A stretch of 64,000 bases of DNA from Sulfolobales archaeon (GCA_038867615.1 JAWBYA010000001.1:544001-608000), one strand, 5' to 3'; counted from the stretch's first letter, positions 29,758-38,899 are shown. Notes: a model not told the origin generated them from the sequence alone. Program-made: numbers and translations.

Positions 29758-30696
29758 TTACTCTCTGTACCGGTCTGCCATAGAGCTAAGGGTGTTGGCT
29801 AGGGTTCTCATTAGTGATATCTCTATAAGTCCTTCCAGGTTGTTTAGTATCGATGCTATCTCTGCATATACTTGTGAGTGCTCCTCGGATTTCTTCATAT
29901 CTTCCTGAAGGATCTTTCTAAGCTCCTGTATATCTTCATACCTACCACTCATCTCCTCCTCGCCGCATTTGTTCTTTATGCAGTGGATTATGGTTAGTAG
30001 GACGCTTGATATCTCGTTGACGAGCTGGGGGGTCTCGCCTGGCACTATTCCGGCCTCCTCTATGCGCCATGCTATCCTGTCAAAGGAGTCGACAAGATCC
30101 TCTGAGATCTTTAATAGCGATATGCTCAACAGCATCCCGATAGTCTTGTCAATCCCGAGCTCCCTCTCGATATTCCTGAGAAGCTCCACCGCACCTGCTC
30201 TGTATGATAGATAGTAAAGGAGATCCATTTTACCCTCAATCTCATGGATCTTTCTAGCAGTATTGCTATCAAGGCTGGCAATATATCTAGCAAGATAGAG
30301 ACAAGCATTCTCTAGATATCTAAGCACCAGGAAAACAAGATCCTCGTGCTCCAGAACCTCCCCCCTATATAGAGGTGCAAGTATCCTGATCAGATCTGGA
30401 TCGCTATGAAGACCACCACCCGGGATCGTTTCCGGAGCACCTAGAGCCAAGGCCATGAGCCTCTCTTTAGCAGCAAGCCTTTCATCGGTAACACCATGCT
30501 GGGGCCTGGCAAAAACACCGGCTAAAACCGGGATCTTTGATCCCATGGGTAGAAGCGTGATAGAACCATCATTATTAAGCCTAAGCATAACCCTATCACC
30601 AGTCCTAACGCCCAGCATAGAAACCCACGCTTTTGGGAGAACAACGGCTAGAGATCTCTTGCCCACGGATACAACATGCCTCATAGCGACATACAT
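29758..30696 (-). CDS. AbrB-domain / PhoU-like transcriptional regulator
   Basis: N-terminal VGKRSLAVVLPKAWV...GDRV AbrB domain followed by a helical PhoU-like region. Confidence 0.75.
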   Translation of the reverse strand: MYVAMRHVVSVGKRSLAVVLPKAWVSMLGVRTGDRVMLRLNNDGSITLLPMGSKIPVLAGVFARPQHGVTDERLAAKERLMALALGAPETIPGGGLHSDPDLIRILAPLYRGEVLEHEDLVFLVLRYLENACLYLARYIASLDSNTARKIHEIEGKMDLLYYLSYRAGAVELLRNIERELGIDKTIGMLLSISLLKISEDLVDSFDRIAWRIEEAGIVPGETPQLVNEISSVLLTIIHCIKNKCGEEEMSGRYEDIQELRKILQEDMKKSEEHSQVYAEIASILNNLEGLIEISLMRTLANTLSSMADRYRE

Positions 30697-30907
30697 ATGA
30701 GTCCCTATACATAGTATGTAAAAGACCTAATCTATAGCCTATCCATCAGACCTATGGCTTATTGCAGAATCGATCATGTCTCTTATGGTAGCCAACGCGC
30801 TAGCCATAGATAGCTGCATCGAGGCTCGTATAAACACAGCATAAATAATATAAATCTATACGTAACGGGAGGTATAAAAAGAGGCTTGGGCAACATATCT
30901 GGGCGAG

Positions 30908-32782
30908 ATGGTGATTCCAGCAAGGAGATTCCTTGAAATAGGCATGCTGATCTTCGTAATAATATATACAGCCAGCCTAACACTAATGATCACCTCCCAG
31001 GCCCAGGAGCTAACCTTCTGCATACCATCACCAGGAAAGCTAGTCGAATTCAACCCATACTTCTACATAGCCTCACCCCCACTAACCCACGGAACCGTTG
31101 TGAAGCTCGTCTACGAAACCCTTGCTGAGGAGAAAGCGGATGGCTCTCTAGAACCCCTCCTAGCTATAAACTGGTCCGTCTCTCAGGATGGAAAAACAGT
31201 GACTATAAAATTGAGGCAAGGCGTCTCATGGCATGACGGAACCTCGTTCACATCGAAGGACGTGGCCTTTGTCTTAAACACTATCCAGAAATTCCCCCAT
31301 GGGGATGTATACAACATTGGTAGATACATAGGATCTATAGAAACACCTGACCAGACCACCGTGGTTATAAGGCTTAAAGAGCCTTTCAGCAGATTCCTAT
31401 ACTACCTCCTAACCGGTTATAGGATCTTCCCGGAGCATGTGTTCACAGACAAGGACATGTCTAACTTCACAGCAAGGGATGCACAGTATGTAGTTGGTAC
31501 AGGACCCTACAGGATCGTTGATGCTAACTTCGATACACAGACCTTCAGATTCGCTGCTTATGAGAAATACTGGGGAGGACAGCCCCAGATCAAGAGCATA
31601 GTGGCGAGAGTGATCGATGAATCGGCACCAATACCAATTATGCTGAAAACAGGGCAGTGCTCCATAGCTATGATAACCAACCCAGCCCTCGTAGCACCAG
31701 CGATCACAGACCCGAAGCTCAAAGTAGCCGCAGCAAGGGGGTGGCCTTACCAGGGCTCTTTCTACACCCCAGCAGGGCTTGTAGTGCTCAATACAGCCGT
31801 GTATCCATTGAATATAACATCCTTTAGACAGGCGCTAGCCTATGCTATAAACAAGGAGAGAATAATACAGCTAGCATTACAAGGGTTTGGCGAAGTAGCA
31901 TCATCAGGGCAGCTCCCACTATCATCCCCGTGGAGACCGCAGGATCTGAACGAGATAACGTATAACATCTCCAAAGCTAGAGAGATCCTGAGATCCCTGG
32001 GGTTTGTTGAGGGGCCGGACAAGATGTTCAGATACCCCAACGGCTCACTCCTAAGCATAAAGATCATACACACGGGAGGTGTTGCAAGCAACATAGTACC
32101 CCTGATTATCCAGGACTGGAGAGCCGCTGGGATCGATGCTAGCGAGGAGGTTCTCACAAGGCTCACATATGTTAACAACCTAGCCTATGGCTATTACCAA
32201 GCAGCCCTACTGCTAACAAACAGACCAACAGATCCTGACTTCGTGCTCACAGTATTCATGGATAGAAACCCACAGCCAACACCAATAGGGCAGAGTGTTC
32301 AGTACTGGGGCTGGACGAGATACCTCAACCCCGAGTTTAATAACTACATAATGATGGCTAGATCGGCGACGTCGGAGGCAGAGGCTTATAAGTACTACGC
32401 AGAGGCTCAGAGAATAGCCGCTAGGGATCAGTGGGTCATACCCCTCTACTATGCAAAAGCGATCTGGGTCTTCAACGCTGCCGACTTTACCGGCTGGGAC
32501 CCGCTGTTCGCTGGCCAGGGCTTCCCATCCCATGGAGCAATGCTATCAGTAAAGCCTTACCAGCAACCGGTAGTCACGGTAGTAACCGAGAGGGTGGTGA
32601 CTGAGAAACCACCTGTTGTGACGGTAACCGAGACCCAGAGGATCACTGCTGTGACGAGCGTTGCACCTACTCAGCAAGCAGAGCAACCCTGGCTTCTATA
32701 TGCATTAATAGCAGCCATAGTAGTGATCGCTGTAGCAGCTCTAGCGATACTTAGAACATCTATGGCTGGGAGAAAGACCTAG
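30908..32782 (+). CDS. Family 5 (Opp/Dpp) ABC transporter substrate-binding protein
   Basis: YETL, PLLA, LRQGVSWHDG, GTGPY and FRQALAYAIN motifs; C-terminal Thr/Val-rich linker plus TM anchor. Confidence 0.9.
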   Translation: MVIPARRFLEIGMLIFVIIYTASLTLMITSQAQELTFCIPSPGKLVEFNPYFYIASPPLTHGTVVKLVYETLAEEKADGSLEPLLAINWSVSQDGKTVTIKLRQGVSWHDGTSFTSKDVAFVLNTIQKFPHGDVYNIGRYIGSIETPDQTTVVIRLKEPFSRFLYYLLTGYRIFPEHVFTDKDMSNFTARDAQYVVGTGPYRIVDANFDTQTFRFAAYEKYWGGQPQIKSIVARVIDESAPIPIMLKTGQCSIAMITNPALVAPAITDPKLKVAAARGWPYQGSFYTPAGLVVLNTAVYPLNITSFRQALAYAINKERIIQLALQGFGEVASSGQLPLSSPWRPQDLNEITYNISKAREILRSLGFVEGPDKMFRYPNGSLLSIKIIHTGGVASNIVPLIIQDWRAAGIDASEEVLTRLTYVNNLAYGYYQAALLLTNRPTDPDFVLTVFMDRNPQPTPIGQSVQYWGWTRYLNPEFNNYIMMARSATSEAEAYKYYAEAQRIAARDQWVIPLYYAKAIWVFNAADFTGWDPLFAGQGFPSHGAMLSVKPYQQPVVTVVTERVVTEKPPVVTVTETQRITAVTSVAPTQQAEQPWLLYALIAAIVVIAVAALAILRTSMAGRKT

Positions 32783-32801
32783 GGATCCCGGTGTCGTCTC
32801 A

Positions 32802-33785
32802 ATGGTTTTTTTAAACACCCTGCTTAGAAGGGTACTCATAGCCCTGCTGACCTATGTAGTCGTGAATCTATTCATATTCACAGTCCCCAGGCTTATGCCT
32901 GGTAACTATGTTGACTATATAGCATCATCCAGGTTCCTACCACAACAGGCTGTTATGGAGCTATACGAGAGATTCGGTCTGAACGAGCCCTTCCACGTAC
33001 AGCTTGCAAGGTATATAACCAACGTGATGTTCTCTCCAAAACCCAATTTTGGGTATTCATACTCATTCTATCCATACGAGGCATGGGATGTGATACAGAT
33101 CTATCTCCCATGGACCGTGCTCCTACTATCGGTGGCAACTATAGCGACATTCATACTCGGAACCCTCCTGGGATTCATTGCAGCATATACCAAGGACTCT
33201 ATCCTGGATAGATTGATAGTGGGCTTCGGCATATATACCCTCTCGACACCATATTTCATCCTCGCCCTCATAATACTCGCCATATTCTCACAATACCTAG
33301 GCCTCTTCCCCGCTGGTGGGGCTTACTCAGCATCAGCTCCCCAAAGTGGTCTTCCGTTTATCCAGAATATCCTATGGCATCTCTTCCTCCCAGTTATGGC
33401 CATAGCTATAGGAACCTCGGGGCAGTTCGTGATACTAACTAGGGAGATAATAGTCTCCAACATGTCTGAGGATTTCTATAGAACAGCCATGGCTCTCGGG
33501 CTGAGGAGGACAAGAATCCTTATCGAGTATGCCCTGAGACCCGGGATCCTCCCCCTCATAACCCTCTTTGGCATCAGATTCGGAACCATGATGAGCGGTG
33601 CCCTGTTAACCGAGATCATATTCTCATACCCAGGTCTTGGGTATATACTCTACCAAGCCATACTTTCGAAAGACTTCCCCCTGCTCCAAGCCCTCTTCTA
33701 TATGATAAGCTTCATGATAATAGCGACAAGCCTTATTCTCGACATTCTCTACATGATCCTTGACCCTAGGATCAGGAGGGGGTAG
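32802..33785 (+). CDS. Opp/Dpp ABC transporter permease (DppB-like)
   Basis: PRLMPG, LPWTVLL, EIIFSYPGLG and LDPRIR motifs. Confidence 0.9.
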   Translation: MVFLNTLLRRVLIALLTYVVVNLFIFTVPRLMPGNYVDYIASSRFLPQQAVMELYERFGLNEPFHVQLARYITNVMFSPKPNFGYSYSFYPYEAWDVIQIYLPWTVLLLSVATIATFILGTLLGFIAAYTKDSILDRLIVGFGIYTLSTPYFILALIILAIFSQYLGLFPAGGAYSASAPQSGLPFIQNILWHLFLPVMAIAIGTSGQFVILTREIIVSNMSEDFYRTAMALGLRRTRILIEYALRPGILPLITLFGIRFGTMMSGALLTEIIFSYPGLGYILYQAILSKDFPLLQALFYMISFMIIATSLILDILYMILDPRIRRG

Positions 33786-34567
33786 TGGTGAGGGCAACAA
33801 GGATCCTGATCCTGTTCGTGGCACTCTCACTCATATCAATCCTAGGTCCTTTCATAGCACCATATGACCCGTTCCAGGTCTCTGGAAACCCCTATCAACA
33901 ACCATCATGGAGCCATATACTAGGCACGGACGGACTTGGGAGAGACATATTCTCCCAACTAATAGTAGGATCTAGGATCACGCTAACCATATCTATCACC
34001 GCAGCCGCTATATCCCTAGCTATAGGCCTCTTCCTAGGCCTTGTCTCATCTCTCAGGGGCCTTTTATCCCAAGCAGTATCGTCTCTAATAGACTCCTTCA
34101 TAGTCGTACCCCCGCTGATAATAATGATATTTATAGCAAGCATTATGGGCCCATCGATAGTATCAACGATAGTCTCGATCTCGCTATCATACTGGCCACA
34201 GATAGCCAAGACCATAAGGGCTGAGGCGCTCTCGATCCTTGAGAGGCAATATGTCGAGGCTGCAAGGGCCGTGGGGGCGGGGATCAAGTGGATCTTTAGG
34301 AAACACGTGATCCCCAACATGGGGCACGTGATCCTTGCTAACCTAGCCTACGCGGTGGGGATAGCGATGGTGAGCGAATCGATAGTAAGCTTCCTAGGAC
34401 TCGGTGATCAGAGGTTCTTCAGCTGGGGAATGATCTTCTACTACGCATTTATACAGGGAGCGATATATTACGGACTATGGCTATGGATCCTCTCGCCAGC
34501 CCTGGTAATATCGATAACAGCATATATACTCTTCGAGACAAGCAGGGATATTATCAAGAGAGCATAG
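33785..34567 (+). CDS. Opp/Dpp ABC transporter permease (DppC-like)
   Basis: HILGTDGLGRDIFS, YVEAARAVGA, HVIPN and SFLGLG motifs. Confidence 0.9.
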   Translation: MVRATRILILFVALSLISILGPFIAPYDPFQVSGNPYQQPSWSHILGTDGLGRDIFSQLIVGSRITLTISITAAAISLAIGLFLGLVSSLRGLLSQAVSSLIDSFIVVPPLIIMIFIASIMGPSIVSTIVSISLSYWPQIAKTIRAEALSILERQYVEAARAVGAGIKWIFRKHVIPNMGHVILANLAYAVGIAMVSESIVSFLGLGDQRFFSWGMIFYYAFIQGAIYYGLWLWILSPALVISITAYILFETSRDIIKRA

Positions 34568-34704
34568 TCTATAGATATGAAGAACAGACACACATAGGCA
34601 GGATAAAAATAAAAATAGAGATACGATCACACGCTATAGAATTGAAAAACAGTTACGTAACTCTCAGCATTTTAACTATGTCGCGGAAAAGACATGGGGG
34701 TTTT

Positions 34705-35442
34705 ATGAGCTCTGCAACGCCCTCTAAGCTACTAGGCATTGTAGTAGATATTCTTGAGAAGGTTATTAAAGAGGAGATCCGTAACCTCGCTGTGGCTTCC
34801 CAAGCAATCTCGGAGGCTATGAGGTCTGGCGGTGTTGAGTATGTCTTTGGTACCGGGCATTCGATGTTGGTTGCTCTGGAGGCTTCTTTTAGGGCTGGTA
34901 ATCCTGTTAAGATCTACCCTATAGTGGATCCATCGCTGCTCGGCATCCCATCGGCCCTGAGGGCAAGCAGCCTTGAAAAGCTCTCTGGCTATGCGAAAGC
35001 TATAGTGAGCTCCATGAAGATCATCCCGGGCTCTGTGCTTGTGGTTATAAGCAACTCTGGGAAGAACGCCGCCCCGGTCGAGCTTGCCCATGAGATGAGG
35101 TCTAGGGGTGTTAGGGTTATAGCGATAACCTCTCTAGAGTATTCGAGAAAACTCGTTCCAGAGAATTCCCTCGGTAAGAGGCTCTACGAGGTTGCCGATA
35201 TAGTTATAGATAACAAGGTTCCCGAGGGTGATGCCTCATACGATATTGGGGGCGTCAGGGTATTCCCGGTGTCGACGATTGTTAATAGCTTTATAATCAA
35301 TGCTATAAACGCGATGGCAGCCGAGGATCTAGCATCCCGCGGGATAGATCCCGAGGTGTGGGCGAGCGTGAACATCCCGGATAGTAGGAAGAGGAATAAC
35401 ATCTATATAGAGAAGTACTATGATATCCTGAAACACCTATAG
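34705..35442 (+). CDS. SIS-domain sugar isomerase-like protein
   Basis: FGTGHS, ISNSGKN, IAITS, DIVIDNKVPEGDA and VWASVN motifs; start trimmed to ATG 34705 (preceded by GGGGG). Confidence 0.82.
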   Translation: MSSATPSKLLGIVVDILEKVIKEEIRNLAVASQAISEAMRSGGVEYVFGTGHSMLVALEASFRAGNPVKIYPIVDPSLLGIPSALRASSLEKLSGYAKAIVSSMKIIPGSVLVVISNSGKNAAPVELAHEMRSRGVRVIAITSLEYSRKLVPENSLGKRLYEVADIVIDNKVPEGDASYDIGGVRVFPVSTIVNSFIINAINAMAAEDLASRGIDPEVWASVNIPDSRKRNNIYIEKYYDILKHL

Positions 35443-35482
35443 AGACTCATTTCGCATTAAAACACAGGGTTTGGTAACAGCC

Positions 35483-35956
35483 ATGGCGGAGATCCTTGTT
35501 AGAAATATAGAGTACAGAGATATAGAGAGCGTATGCGATATAATGCTATCAATAGATCCATACAAAACCCTAGGATATACGCCCGATATATGTATAGAGA
35601 CCGTTATCTCAAACATAGAGGAGGGGTGGGGAGCTGTTGCAGAGATAGACGGAAGGATCGTTGGCTTCGTGCTATTCAGAGTATTCGACGGCTTCCCACT
35701 AGGTGGATATATAAGAGCCCTGGGAGTTCACCAAGGATATAGATCTATGGGTGTTGGGACAAGGCTTATGGACTATGCTGAGGGGGTTATTTTCAAGTAT
35801 AGGGAGAATGTATTCCTCCTAGTATCCTCGTTCAACGAACAGGCGATCCGGTTCTATATGAAGAGAGGCTATAAAGTAATAGGAGTTATAGAGAACGCTA
35901 TAGTAAAGGGATACCACGAGATCATTATGAGGAAGACCAAGAATAGCCAGAGGTGA
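35483..35956 (+). CDS. GNAT family N-acetyltransferase
   Basis: LGVHQGYRSMGVGTRL acetyl-CoA motif A and NEQAIRFYMKRGY. Confidence 0.88.
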   Translation: MAEILVRNIEYRDIESVCDIMLSIDPYKTLGYTPDICIETVISNIEEGWGAVAEIDGRIVGFVLFRVFDGFPLGGYIRALGVHQGYRSMGVGTRLMDYAEGVIFKYRENVFLLVSSFNEQAIRFYMKRGYKVIGVIENAIVKGYHEIIMRKTKNSQR

Positions 35957-35965
35957 GAATCCCAT

Positions 35966-37162
35966 ATGAACCCTGTTAAGAGGCTTATAGATATAGCTAT
36001 GCGTGAAACCAGGATCGTTGCCGGGCTTATGTCAGGGACTAGTGCTGATGGTGTTGATATAGCTATCATGGAGATCACGGGCAGTGGGAGGGGCGTTAAA
36101 TACAGGATCCTTGGCAAAGGGGTTGAGAAATACCCGAGCGGTTTGAGGAGCATGATTCTAAGAACCCTTGACTCGGGAGGGCTTCACGACATATGTGCTC
36201 TTAACTTCCTCATAGCCAGGTTCTTCGCAAAGGCGTTCGAAAACACTAGAGAGGTTCTTGGTATTAAGAGGGGGGAGATAGATCTTGTGGGGTCGCATGG
36301 GCAGACTGTGTACCACTTCCCCGAGCTTATAAGGATCGATGATCTTGTGTCTAGATGCACCCTACAGCTAGGATCTGTTCAGGTAGTCGCGGAAGACACA
36401 GGGATCATAACGATAGGCAACTTCAGGATTAGGGATATAGCTGCAGGAGGTATGGGAGCCCCGATAATAGCCTATGTTGACTATGCACTCCTATCAAGCC
36501 CAAACACCGGGAGGGCGATCCAGAATATAGGGGGGATAGCTAACGTGACAGTCATACCCCCAGACCCGTCTATAGATAGCATATATGCATTCGACACGGG
36601 TCCTGGGAATAGCTTGATAGACTATGCAGTATCGATTCTGTATGACGGCATGGAGTACGATCCAAACGGGGAGATAGCCTCAAGAGGATCCCCCGACCCC
36701 GAGATGCTGGAGGAGTTGATGGGCCATCCATTCATAAGAGCACCTCCTCCAAAGACCACGGGAAGAGAGGTCTTTGGGAAAAGCCTCGTACTCAGGGTTA
36801 TAGAGAGGGCTAGGGCGAAGGGGCTATCGAGGGAGGATATAGTTGCTACCCTCACAATGTATACTGTAGAGAGCATAGTATATAATTATAAGGAGTACAT
36901 ACTCCCCAGAGTAAAGATCGGCGAGGTTATAGTGGGTGGCGGTGGTACGAGGAACAAGACCTTGATGGGGTGGCTTAGAAAACACCTAGAATCCCTCGGG
37001 CTGAGGGTGCTTGTCCACGAGGATCTCGGCATAGACTCAAAGATCAAGGAGGCTATGGGTATGGCTCTACTTGCCCACGAAACACTCAACGGTGTTCCAA
37101 ACAACGTACCAGGGGCTACAGGGGCTCTCAAAAGGGTTGTGATGGGTGAGATAGCTCTCTAG
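35966..37162 (+). CDS. anmK: Anhydro-N-acetylmuramic acid kinase
   Basis: GLMSGTSADGVD, GSHGQT, FRIRDIAAGGMGAP, NIGGIAN, FDTGPGN, PPKTTGRE and GGG..N motifs all present. Confidence 0.92.
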   Translation: MNPVKRLIDIAMRETRIVAGLMSGTSADGVDIAIMEITGSGRGVKYRILGKGVEKYPSGLRSMILRTLDSGGLHDICALNFLIARFFAKAFENTREVLGIKRGEIDLVGSHGQTVYHFPELIRIDDLVSRCTLQLGSVQVVAEDTGIITIGNFRIRDIAAGGMGAPIIAYVDYALLSSPNTGRAIQNIGGIANVTVIPPDPSIDSIYAFDTGPGNSLIDYAVSILYDGMEYDPNGEIASRGSPDPEMLEELMGHPFIRAPPPKTTGREVFGKSLVLRVIERARAKGLSREDIVATLTMYTVESIVYNYKEYILPRVKIGEVIVGGGGTRNKTLMGWLRKHLESLGLRVLVHEDLGIDSKIKEAMGMALLAHETLNGVPNNVPGATGALKRVVMGEIAL

Positions 37163-37167
37163 GCTCT

Positions 37168-37608
37168 CTAGAGATTAAAGTTCTCCATAAACCACTGTGC
37201 TGCTAGCTCTAGGTTTACGGGTTTATCCTGCATCTTCATACACTCCCTGGTTTTCGTTGCGACATACTCCATCTTCTCAAGATCGCTTTCCGAGAGATCA
37301 AGAGACCCCAGGATAGCTCCATCCCTGGCCAGCGAGATCCTCCTAGACTTAGAAGCACCCTCTATGATCCCCAGCGTCGCCGGGTCGAGAGGATCTAGGA
37401 ATGAGGCTATCAAAACCTTCTCACCACCCATTAGAGCATCAATACCTATGACAATCACACACCCATGGGGAGTCGAGATCGCAAGCCCCGTGGTCCTAGA
37501 ACCCCTGGGGAGGGAAACCTCTCCCCAGAGATCCTCCCCCTTAACGTCTATCACCACCGAGCCGTTGGAAAGCCTCAGATACCCTCTCACGATAAACAAA
37601 AACACCAC
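37168..37608 (-). CDS. Hypothetical protein
   Basis: 146 aa ORF filling the gap, host-like codon usage. Confidence 0.6.
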   Translation of the reverse strand: MVFLFIVRGYLRLSNGSVVIDVKGEDLWGEVSLPRGSRTTGLAISTPHGCVIVIGIDALMGGEKVLIASFLDPLDPATLGIIEGASKSRRISLARDGAILGSLDLSESDLEKMEYVATKTRECMKMQDKPVNLELAAQWFMENFNL

Positions 37609-38092: not shown

Positions 38093-38899
38093 CTAGGGAT
38101 AGATCATGTTAGAGCTAAACCCAAGGATCTCCTTATCCTCCAAATAGTACGCTTTATCCCAGCCCTCGCTGATCATCCTGTTAACTATGGATTCGATAAC
38201 CCATATGGTATTGCAAAAAGCACCTCTGCATCTACTCCTATGAACCCTAGCGAAGCTTGCCTCAAACCCCTCCCTAGGATCGCTGCTCGAGAGGATCACA
38301 AGATCCCTACCCCTAGATCCAAACACCGGGGCGTGGAAAAACTGCTCCAGCCTCTCATAATAAGCCCTCTCACCAAAGATCTCGAATACCTTGAGTGCAG
38401 CATAATATGCTACTCCGTAGTTCTCCCTACGTCCTATAAAGATAGGCTCTCTAGGCATGACTATAGGACGATCCCTCTCAGAATCTATCTCCTCACCGGC
38501 TAGCGAGTATAGGGCGCTTAAACACATCAAGAAAGATCTCACGCCGGGGATTCTGCGAGGCTTATATGGTATCTTGATAACAATATCGCCCAACTTAGCC
38601 AAAGGGCTCTCCTCATCAGCAGTTATAACATAGATCTTAACCCTACCTCTATGTCTCCTAGCAAGCTCTACATTAGCCCTAGTCCTCCCAGAGACCGAGA
38701 CGATCACGAGGGGCAGATCTAGATCTGCTTCAAGCCCATCATAAGGATCCAGAGCTTTAACCCTACCCCTACTCTTCCCCTCAATAGCCAGTGCAGCTGC
38801 ATAGGAATCACCAGCACCAGCTACGTATGCCCTCTCAAGCTTTACATCCACATCCACAATATAGTCCTCCTTAAGCTCCTCCAACATCTCCCTGATCAC
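38093..38899 (-). CDS. SIS-domain protein (GlmS isomerase-domain-like)
   Basis: AGAGDSYAAA, VSVSGRT, ITADEESPLAK, ALKVFE and EQFFHAP motifs. Confidence 0.82.
   Translation of the reverse strand: MIREMLEELKEDYIVDVDVKLERAYVAGAGDSYAAALAIEGKSRGRVKALDPYDGLEADLDLPLVIVSVSGRTRANVELARRHRGRVKIYVITADEESPLAKLGDIVIKIPYKPRRIPGVRSFLMCLSALYSLAGEEIDSERDRPIVMPREPIFIGRRENYGVAYYAALKVFEIFGERAYYERLEQFFHAPVFGSRGRDLVILSSSDPREGFEASFARVHRSRCRGAFCNTIWVIESIVNRMISEGWDKAYYLEDKEILGFSSNMIYP

Follow-up and report, generated by a model that had tools for sequence, protein, structure and literature searches.

In bacteria, AnmK phosphorylates 1,6-anhydro-N-acetylmuramic acid (anhMurNAc) during cell wall recycling, and the Thermoprotei make no peptidoglycan. 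Here we analyzed a stretch of 64,000 nucleotides (the window) from a Sulfolobales archaeon (GCA_038867615.1, JAWBYA010000001.1:544001-608000; G000:C1:544001-608000 in our numbering), in which a full-length AnmK gene closes an operon of six co-oriented genes. The five genes in front of it encode a family 5 solute-binding protein, two Dpp-type permeases of an ATP-binding cassette (ABC) transporter, a SIS protein of the UPF0309 family and a GNAT N-acetyltransferase, and the gene of an AbrB-type regulator lies divergently upstream (Table 1). The gene calls combine an open reading frame (ORF) listing with Pfam and NCBIfam scans of the window, and they recovered all seven genes that an earlier reading made from the DNA alone (the sequence-only reading) had described. 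The genes of the operon follow closely on one another, at distances of 20, -1, about 110, 28 and 9 bp, and its GC content is like that of the remainder of the window. As listed, the UPF0309 ORF overlaps the stop codon of the DppC gene; because the proteins of relatives have 247-265 amino acids and an internal ATG gives 254, this ATG is probably the true start. Searches of the window for tRNA and Rfam families found none.

The window lies on a contig of 641 kb in a genome of 2.22 Mb and 28 contigs (completeness 94.4%, contamination 0.27%). The closest AnmK homologues are 97% identical, followed by proteins of 63-69% identity, and their records are named Sulfolobales, Thermoproteota or Crenarchaeota archaeon. 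The same 12-gene stretch occurs in two genomes of the same genus, with protein identities of 90-96% and on contigs of up to 297 kb, and it is present in hot-spring metagenomes from several studies. Ordinary archaeal genes, for aldehyde:ferredoxin oxidoreductase, a Liv-type ABC system and a short-chain fatty acid transporter, flank the operon. With nearest homologues, same-genus synteny and flanks all archaeal, there is no sign that the contig came from a bacterium, a possibility that the sequence-only reading had raised.

Table 1. Features of the operon, its surroundings and the host GH84 gene. Positions count from the first letter of the window unless a genome or locus is named.
Feature	Position	Strand	Support
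AbrB/MazE-type regulator, divergent	29758-30696	-	PF04014, 41.9 bits
Divergent intergenic region	30697-30907		two TATA-like boxes, 30828-30839 and 30872-30883
Family 5 solute-binding protein (SBP_bac_5)	30908-32782	+	228.7 bits
DppB/OppB-type ABC permease	32802-33785	+	BPD_transp_1, 127 bits; BPD_transp_1_N
DppC/OppC-type ABC permease	33785-34567	+	BPD_transp_1, 68.7 bits; Opp4C, 159 bits
UPF0309 SIS protein	34678-35442 (probable start; ORF as listed 34477-35442)	+	SIS_2, 125.9 bits; NF002805, 242.7 bits
GNAT N-acetyltransferase	35471-35956	+	PF00583, 62.2 bits
AnmK	35966-37162	+	PF03702, 288.1 bits; NF007148, 422.5 bits
146-amino-acid ORF	37168-37608	-	no Pfam or NCBIfam match
Second single-SIS protein (268-270 amino acids)	38093-38899	-	NagB-II and HxlB, weak (26 bits)
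GH84 (O-GlcNAcase-type), outside the window	G000:C1:357658-358899 (L037:9659-10900)		283 bits

The neighbors of AnmK were counted at 13 loci of order-level relatives, several of them on cut contigs. The regulator was found at 9 of the 13 loci, UPF0309 at 8, a Dpp-type transporter at 6 and GNAT at 4; the linkage of AnmK to the transporter and the SIS gene thus holds in relatives. Clustering of the ORFs of 35 loci showed that the AnmK loci also contain genes for a PBP4B/AmiE-like hydrolase (beta-lactamase fold, best model PBP4B) in 8 cases, the exo-beta-N-acetylmuramidase NamZ (PF07075, 197 bits, and PF20732, 119 bits) in 5, a GH84 beta-N-acetylglucosaminidase in 5 and NagA in 3, and further recurrent neighbors are a NagK-like sugar kinase of the BadF/BadG type (103 bits), M20 peptidases and GlmS-like genes. 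The PBP4B-like protein, which we take to be of the AmiE type, shares 32% identity with YfeW of E. coli (E 1e-52), and yfeW follows murQ-murP in E. coli K-12. In the accessible part of the NamZ paper, namZ ends the B. subtilis operon murQ-murR-murP-amiE-nagZ-namZ (PMC8054146).

The fullest arrangement is that of a same-genus genome (G001), in which about 22 kb hold a second set of binding protein and DppBC permeases, GH84, NamZ, a BadF kinase, UPF0309, GNAT, the binding protein with DppBC, the regulator, AnmK and the PBP4B-like gene. In G007 and G009, the genes for NagA, AnmK, the PBP4B-like protein, UPF0309 and GH84 stand side by side. Signal-like N-termini are lacking in the PBP4B-like, NamZ and GH84 proteins, which would fit a cytoplasmic route as in E. 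coli and not secreted enzymes of the B. subtilis type. A separate observation is that in two relatives (G006 and G008) AnmK is separated from the Dpp permease genes by a gene of the GH13 alpha-amylase family (204 bits; L016:10544-12658 and L017:7109-9088).

The distribution of these genes was followed at two depths. The order-level sample comprises 61 genomes including the host, which are related, so that the counts show consistency and not independent events. AnmK is present in 14 of them, namely the host, 12 of the 13 other members of its family and one genome of another family. NamZ was found in 8 of these 14 genomes and in none of the 47 genomes without AnmK. The corresponding counts are 13 and 2 for GH84, 13 and 5 for UPF0309 over its cut-off (the 14th AnmK-positive genome has a fragment at a contig end), and 12 and 10 for NagA over its cut-off. 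MurQ was found in none of the 61 genomes.

In an even sample of 301 Thermoproteota genomes, on the other hand, AnmK occurs in 28, MurQ in 32 and UPF0309 in 16. MurQ accompanies AnmK in 23 of the 28 AnmK-positive genomes and UPF0309 is present in four of the other five; one genome carries both, and one (90% complete) carries neither. We fetched 20 of the 29 AnmK loci of this sample. At four of them NamZ and MurQ lie within 10 kb, in three cases together with a BadF kinase, and the MurQ proteins of these loci share 42-45% identity with the E. coli enzyme; five loci have a PBP4B-like gene in the vicinity. Taken together, AnmK clusters with NamZ, PBP4B-like, GH84, NagA and BadF kinase genes in close relatives and with MurQ in other Thermoproteota, which supports the tie to peptidoglycan sugars made in the sequence-only reading.

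We built a quick tree of 55 AnmK proteins by maximum likelihood, with E. coli AnmK as the root and no levoglucosan kinase included, and in it the window protein falls within a large archaeal clade. The AnmKs that come from genomes with MurQ branch within those from genomes with UPF0309 (SH-aLRT 96). Thus the partner of one orthologous kinase is MurQ in some archaea, UPF0309 in others.

We propose, with a probability of about 0.7, that the operon serves uptake and entry in a cytoplasmic pathway by which the archaeon feeds on turnover fragments of bacterial peptidoglycan. In this pathway, the anchored binding protein and the two Dpp-type permeases would import N-acetylglucosamine (GlcNAc)-1,6-anhydro-MurNAc or a similar small muropeptide, and a cytoplasmic GH84 beta-N-acetylglucosaminidase would cleave off GlcNAc. 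AnmK would then use ATP to open the 1,6-anhydro ring, with the product MurNAc-6-phosphate (MurNAc-6P), from which the UPF0309 enzyme would strip the D-lactyl ether to yield GlcNAc-6-phosphate (GlcNAc-6P), the step of MurQ performed by a non-orthologous protein. NagA would deacetylate the product, and the protein with only the GlmS isomerase domain, or GlmS, would lead to fructose-6-phosphate. Relatives would add NamZ for removal of terminal MurNAc, the PBP4B/AmiE-like hydrolase, probably for peptide removal, and a BadF-type GlcNAc/MurNAc kinase, and the AbrB-type regulator would control the operon. The gene identities, their linkage and their distributions are observations, from which we infer all substrates and activities, that of the etherase included. 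That the system serves the salvage of peptidoglycan sugars, whatever the enzyme of each step, we hold to be quite likely.

The host genome contains part of the remaining pathway. NagA (324.9 bits, cut-off 225.65) is encoded directly 3' of GH84, a BadF-type kinase is present, and a protein with only the GlmS isomerase domain reaches 166 bits with the NagB-II model, which is under the cut-off. Several observations weigh against the salvage proposal. The GH84-nagA pair is not part of the operon and lies about 220 kb from it on the same contig. NamZ, Amidase_2, Amidase_3 and a close PBP4B-like gene were not found in the host genome at 94.4% completeness; because of this, the host with known enzymes could be limited to peptide-free fragments such as GlcNAc-anhMurNAc, barring an unrecognised amidase. 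A Dpp/Opp-type importer comprises two ATPases besides the binding protein and the two permeases, and no ABC ATPase gene is present in the operon or in its copies in close relatives; such genes exist elsewhere in the host genome, which would presumably supply the ATPase of the importer. Finally, 11 of the 20 fetched loci of the phylum sample have none of the marker genes near AnmK. MurQ was likewise not found in the host genome, and a single GH3 protein and a distant PF00144 protein are both unlinked to the operon. Among the genes that the sequence-only reading had suggested searching for, nagA is present, murQ, namZ and the amidases were not found, and GH3, the family of NagZ, is represented by that one unlinked protein.

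The SIS protein belongs to the UPF0309/NagS family (NF002805, cut-off 135 bits), and its best sequence match in the PDB is NagS of Streptomyces coelicolor (SCO4393; 9eol, 135 bits, 32% identity). All nine active-site residues of NagS (H53, S54, R64, S91, E94, S119, S121, D179 and N228) are identical in the alignment, and the predicted structure (pLDDT, the predicted local distance difference test, 88.6) has a template modeling score (TM) of 0.88 to NagS. Outside the UPF0309/NagS family, solved structures of MurQ come closest in fold (E about 1e-8, TM about 0.62), followed by GmhA. The protein is not a MurQ member, with no match to TIGR00274 at E 0.01. According to the accessible part of the NagS paper, NagS is a dehydratase related to MurQ that takes GlcNAc-6P through the same C2/C3 elimination chemistry as in the MurQ reaction, and its orthologues are at least 58.7% identical and always beside dmdR1 (PMC12680351). 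The window protein stands outside NagS proper, with its lower identity and with DppC and GNAT, not a divergent dmdR1, as neighbors; the archaeal context is that of AnmK, NagA and GH84.

Because the AnmK-positive genomes without MurQ mostly carry UPF0309, we give an even chance to the proposal that UPF0309 fills the MurNAc-6P etherase step in place of MurQ. The sequence-only reading had placed the SIS protein in this role, and the complementary distribution of MurQ and UPF0309 supports it. A scan of species-representative genomes gave 80 UPF0309 loci, 35 archaeal and 45 bacterial, and E. coli-type MurQ was found at none of them. Of the bacterial loci, 19 have a BadF kinase no more than 1.5 kb away, 17 have GH84 that close and 10 have both. 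The pairing of a BadF-type kinase with an etherase mirrors the MurK-MurQ modules that reportedly exist in Clostridium acetobutylicum and Tannerella forsythia; other Thermoproteota have NamZ, MurQ and BadF kinase together, and G001 has NamZ, BadF kinase, UPF0309 and GNAT, as if the etherase family had been replaced.

The strongest competing explanation accepts the salvage of wall sugars and gives UPF0309 a different reaction, as a glucosamine-6-phosphate deaminase (a NagB analogue), an epimerase of N-acetylmannosamine-6-phosphate (ManNAc-6P) and GlcNAc-6P or a NagS-like dehydratase, with the etherase step performed by an unrecognised enzyme or absent. The etherase proposal is weakened by the lack of significant sequence similarity between UPF0309 and MurQ (BLASTP to E. 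coli MurQ, E 0.33; hhalign probability of 30% over 44 columns). In the accessible part of the NagS paper, NagS, the only characterised member of the family, acts on GlcNAc-6P and binds GlcNAc-6P and ManNAc-6P, and the activity of three distant homologues (26-36% identity) on GlcNAc-6P was nil or negligible (PMC12680351). The genomic context of UPF0309 points in the same direction. NagA lies within 1.5 kb at 18 of the 35 archaeal and 5 of the 45 bacterial loci, and UPF0309 adjoins NagA in relatives without AnmK (G022, G047 and G048) and likewise in a second copy in G002. In the phylum sample, 11 of the 16 genomes with UPF0309 have no AnmK, often with UPF0309 beside NagA and an ascorbate-type phosphotransferase system (PTS). 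Strict replacement of MurQ is also contradicted by the co-occurrence of MurQ in two of the five bacterial UPF0309 genomes that were checked, and the complementarity of MurQ and UPF0309, seen among related and thus not independent genomes, may reflect perhaps three switches. Against this explanation, MurQ and UPF0309 are nearly mutually exclusive among AnmK-positive archaea, and in G001 UPF0309 occupies the slot of MurQ beside NamZ and the BadF kinase. A role as deaminase is further opposed by the separate candidate of the host, the GlmS-isomerase-only protein that matches the NagB-II model, and by a double-SIS GlmD-like gene directly beside UPF0309 in a Nitrososphaeria locus. On balance, we regard this explanation as unlikely.

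Two side observations concern UPF0309 loci. In Thermoprotei relatives, a PTS consisting of enzyme I, HPr, EIIA and an ascorbate-type EIIC (NF006919, 442 bits) lies beside NagA-UPF0309 (L019:13715-18214 in G009, L039:6962-13139 in G022 and L043:9971-12035 in G002). Genes of a PTS are unusual among these archaea at the level of the phylum, and their place next to NagA-UPF0309 suggests that the system transports an amino sugar; the ascorbate-type PTS was not found in the host genome. In the Nitrososphaeria locus (L079), which comes from a metagenome-assembled genome, a protein of 595 amino acids with no Pfam match is encoded between UPF0309 and a second BadF-type kinase (L079:8703-10490, minus strand), and an ABC sugar importer is present there along with the GlmD-like gene.

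The kinase is a member of the AnmK family and scores above the curated cut-offs of PF03702 (24 bits) and NF007148 (387 bits) over its full length. Two sister models of NCBIfam score higher or similarly but below their own cut-offs, and the NCBIfam AnmK models together give 405-429 bits. The SGTSxDG motif at the N-terminus, the GGG motif and the catalytic Asp are conserved in the alignments, as expected from the claim of the sequence-only reading that all family motifs are present. This Asp, D210 in FDTGPG, aligns with the catalytic Asp of levoglucosan kinase (LGK), which we take to be D212. In the accessible part of a study of Pseudomonas aeruginosa AnmK, the catalytic Asp that activates water is Asp182 (PMC10570956). 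We propose that the window kinase is a 1,6-anhydro-MurNAc kinase, with the substrate read from the gene context, namely the NamZ, MurQ and PBP4B-like neighbors of its orthologues. At one further locus (L179, G073:C35), the AnmK open frame has 524-579 amino acids compared with about 400, which may reflect an N-terminal fusion or a mis-set start.

Alternatively, the kinase could act on another 1,6-anhydrosugar, such as levoglucosan or 1,6-anhydro-GlcNAc from heat or pyrolysis, within a general system for the uptake of anhydrosugars or oligosaccharides unrelated to walls. The best PDB match of the kinase is indeed LGK of Lipomyces starkeyi (238 bits), ahead of two bacterial AnmKs (198 and 161 bits), which also counts against our proposal. 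LGK belongs to the same kinase family and performs the same ring-opening phosphorylation. Dpp-type binding proteins of thermophiles often carry sugars, a mannoside binder of Thermotoga is among the best matches of the binding protein, and 11 of the 20 fetched loci of the phylum sample have no wall-related neighbors by the markers used. However, the scores on the NCBIfam AnmK models are far above the LGK match, and the neighbors of AnmK (NamZ, MurQ, the PBP4B-like protein, GH84 and NagA) are specific for MurNAc or GlcNAc, with NamZ confined to AnmK-positive genomes in the order-level sample. LGK is a fungal enzyme of a neutral sugar that would need none of these amino-sugar neighbors, and levoglucosan would yield glucose-6-phosphate, with no need of the SIS enzyme, NagA or GNAT. 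The levoglucosan alternative, which the sequence-only reading had offered, is therefore disfavored by the gene context and has the best PDB match as the one point on its side among those in its favor that concern the kinase itself; we consider it improbable.

The host genome was also searched for peptidoglycan synthesis and breakdown genes, and murB, murA over the cut-off and an SLT-type lytic transglycosylase were not found. Because murA and murB are absent, the host cannot make MurNAc, in agreement with the earlier statement that its lineage has no peptidoglycan synthesis. It is highly improbable that these genes recycle an endogenous archaeal glycan, such as GlcNAc-rich N-glycans or an unknown MurNAc-like polymer, for although GH84, NagA, the GlcNAc-type kinase and the GlmS-like genes would equally serve GlcNAc recycling, the host has neither a route to MurNAc nor an SLT-type enzyme to form the 1,6-anhydro end, the operon is headed by an extracellular binding protein and an importer, and NamZ and the PBP4B-like protein are specific for peptidoglycan in the bacteria where they have been studied.

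The proposed salvage pathway can be compared with known bacterial systems. The recycling route of E. coli (AmpG, NagZ, AmpD, AnmK, MurQ and NagA) follows the same logic of import, GlcNAc removal, AnmK, GlcNAc-6P and NagA, and its AnmK and NagA are homologous to the archaeal proteins. The archaeal importer, however, is a Dpp-type ABC system and not AmpG, the glucosaminidase is GH84 and not the GH3 enzyme NagZ, an AmpD-type amidase is missing, and a UPF0309 SIS protein would take the place of MurQ. As the host makes no peptidoglycan, the archaeal pathway would serve feeding and not recycling. The relatives resemble the mur-ami-nagZ-namZ operon of B. subtilis and murQ-murP-yfeW of E. coli in clustering NamZ and the PBP4B/YfeW-like gene with the step that forms MurNAc-6P, whereas the window genome itself has neither of the two. 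In B. subtilis the enzymes are secreted and MurNAc enters through a PTS; in the archaea the enzymes have no signal-like N-termini, and an ABC importer and AnmK are used.

Among the pools of bacterial necromass, peptidoglycan is one of the largest, and its fragments are usually seen as recycled by bacteria or sensed by animals and plants. If the proposal is true, a regulated and widely conserved archaeal route would be a defined trophic link to bacterial neighbors in hot springs, and the presence of AnmK, MurQ and NamZ genes in archaeal genomes would be explained. Automatic annotation already labels these archaeal genes AnmK. Our literature search, which left most subscription journals outside, found no account of an archaeal AnmK, MurQ or NamZ pathway and nothing on UPF0309 beyond NagS. 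The accessible part of the NamZ paper does not mention archaea (PMC8054146), and the paper on the related enzyme MupG left archaeal homologues aside since archaea lack peptidoglycan (PMC6262408). The proposal also gives a testable function to UPF0309, a large family of unknown function, and thermostable enzymes for making or analysing muropeptide derivatives are a prospect. More broadly, and with somewhat less than even odds, UPF0309 outside Streptomyces could be a second, non-orthologous family of MurNAc-6P etherases in archaea and many bacteria, and several Thermoproteota lineages could owe part of their nutrition to bacterial wall debris, using a complete anhydro-muropeptide pathway of the cytoplasm that they acquired from bacteria.

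The binding protein has a hydrophobic segment at the N-terminus and, at the C-terminus, a linker rich in Thr and Val followed by a hydrophobic membrane anchor, and is thus predicted to be extracellular and membrane-anchored. Among its solved relatives, DppA, NikA and the mannoside binder of Thermotoga have similar scores of about 107-115 bits. An assignment of the ligand from such matches was abandoned, as binders of dipeptides, nickel, mannosides and chitin oligosaccharides score alike.

The sequence-only reading had called the regulator AbrB/PhoU-like. The AbrB part is confirmed by Pfam (Table 1), and the PhoU part has no Pfam match and is weakly supported by the predicted structure. In the model (mean pLDDT 73), residues 117-311 form six long helices, and the best Foldseek matches of this C-terminal domain of about 200 residues are PhoU and PhoU-like proteins (E 6e-3 to 0.2), which weakly suggests a PhoU-like domain. 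The two TATA-like boxes between the regulator and the operon form the direct repeat family D1, and the second lies about 28 bp 5' of the ATG of the binding protein; from the layout of archaeal promoters, both may be promoter elements.

For the GNAT protein, no specific relative was found in NCBIfam or the PDB. The earlier suggestion that it acts in place of NagA does not hold, since GNATs add acetyl groups and do not remove them, and a genuine NagA is encoded elsewhere on the contig. GNAT may instead re-acetylate amino sugars that have lost their N-acetyl group, for which GlmA acetyltransferase is said to be a precedent in wall-sugar salvage; another guess would be the acetylation of released D-amino acids.

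Two genes beyond AnmK were considered as members of the system and set aside, because their linkage to the operon is limited to the closest relatives. The ORF of 146 amino acids, convergent on AnmK, is conserved in the two closest relatives only, at 92% identity. The gene for the second single-SIS protein also occurs at L024, L025, L045 and L046, so that it is seen at five loci, each time no more than about 10 kb from UPF0309 or GH84.

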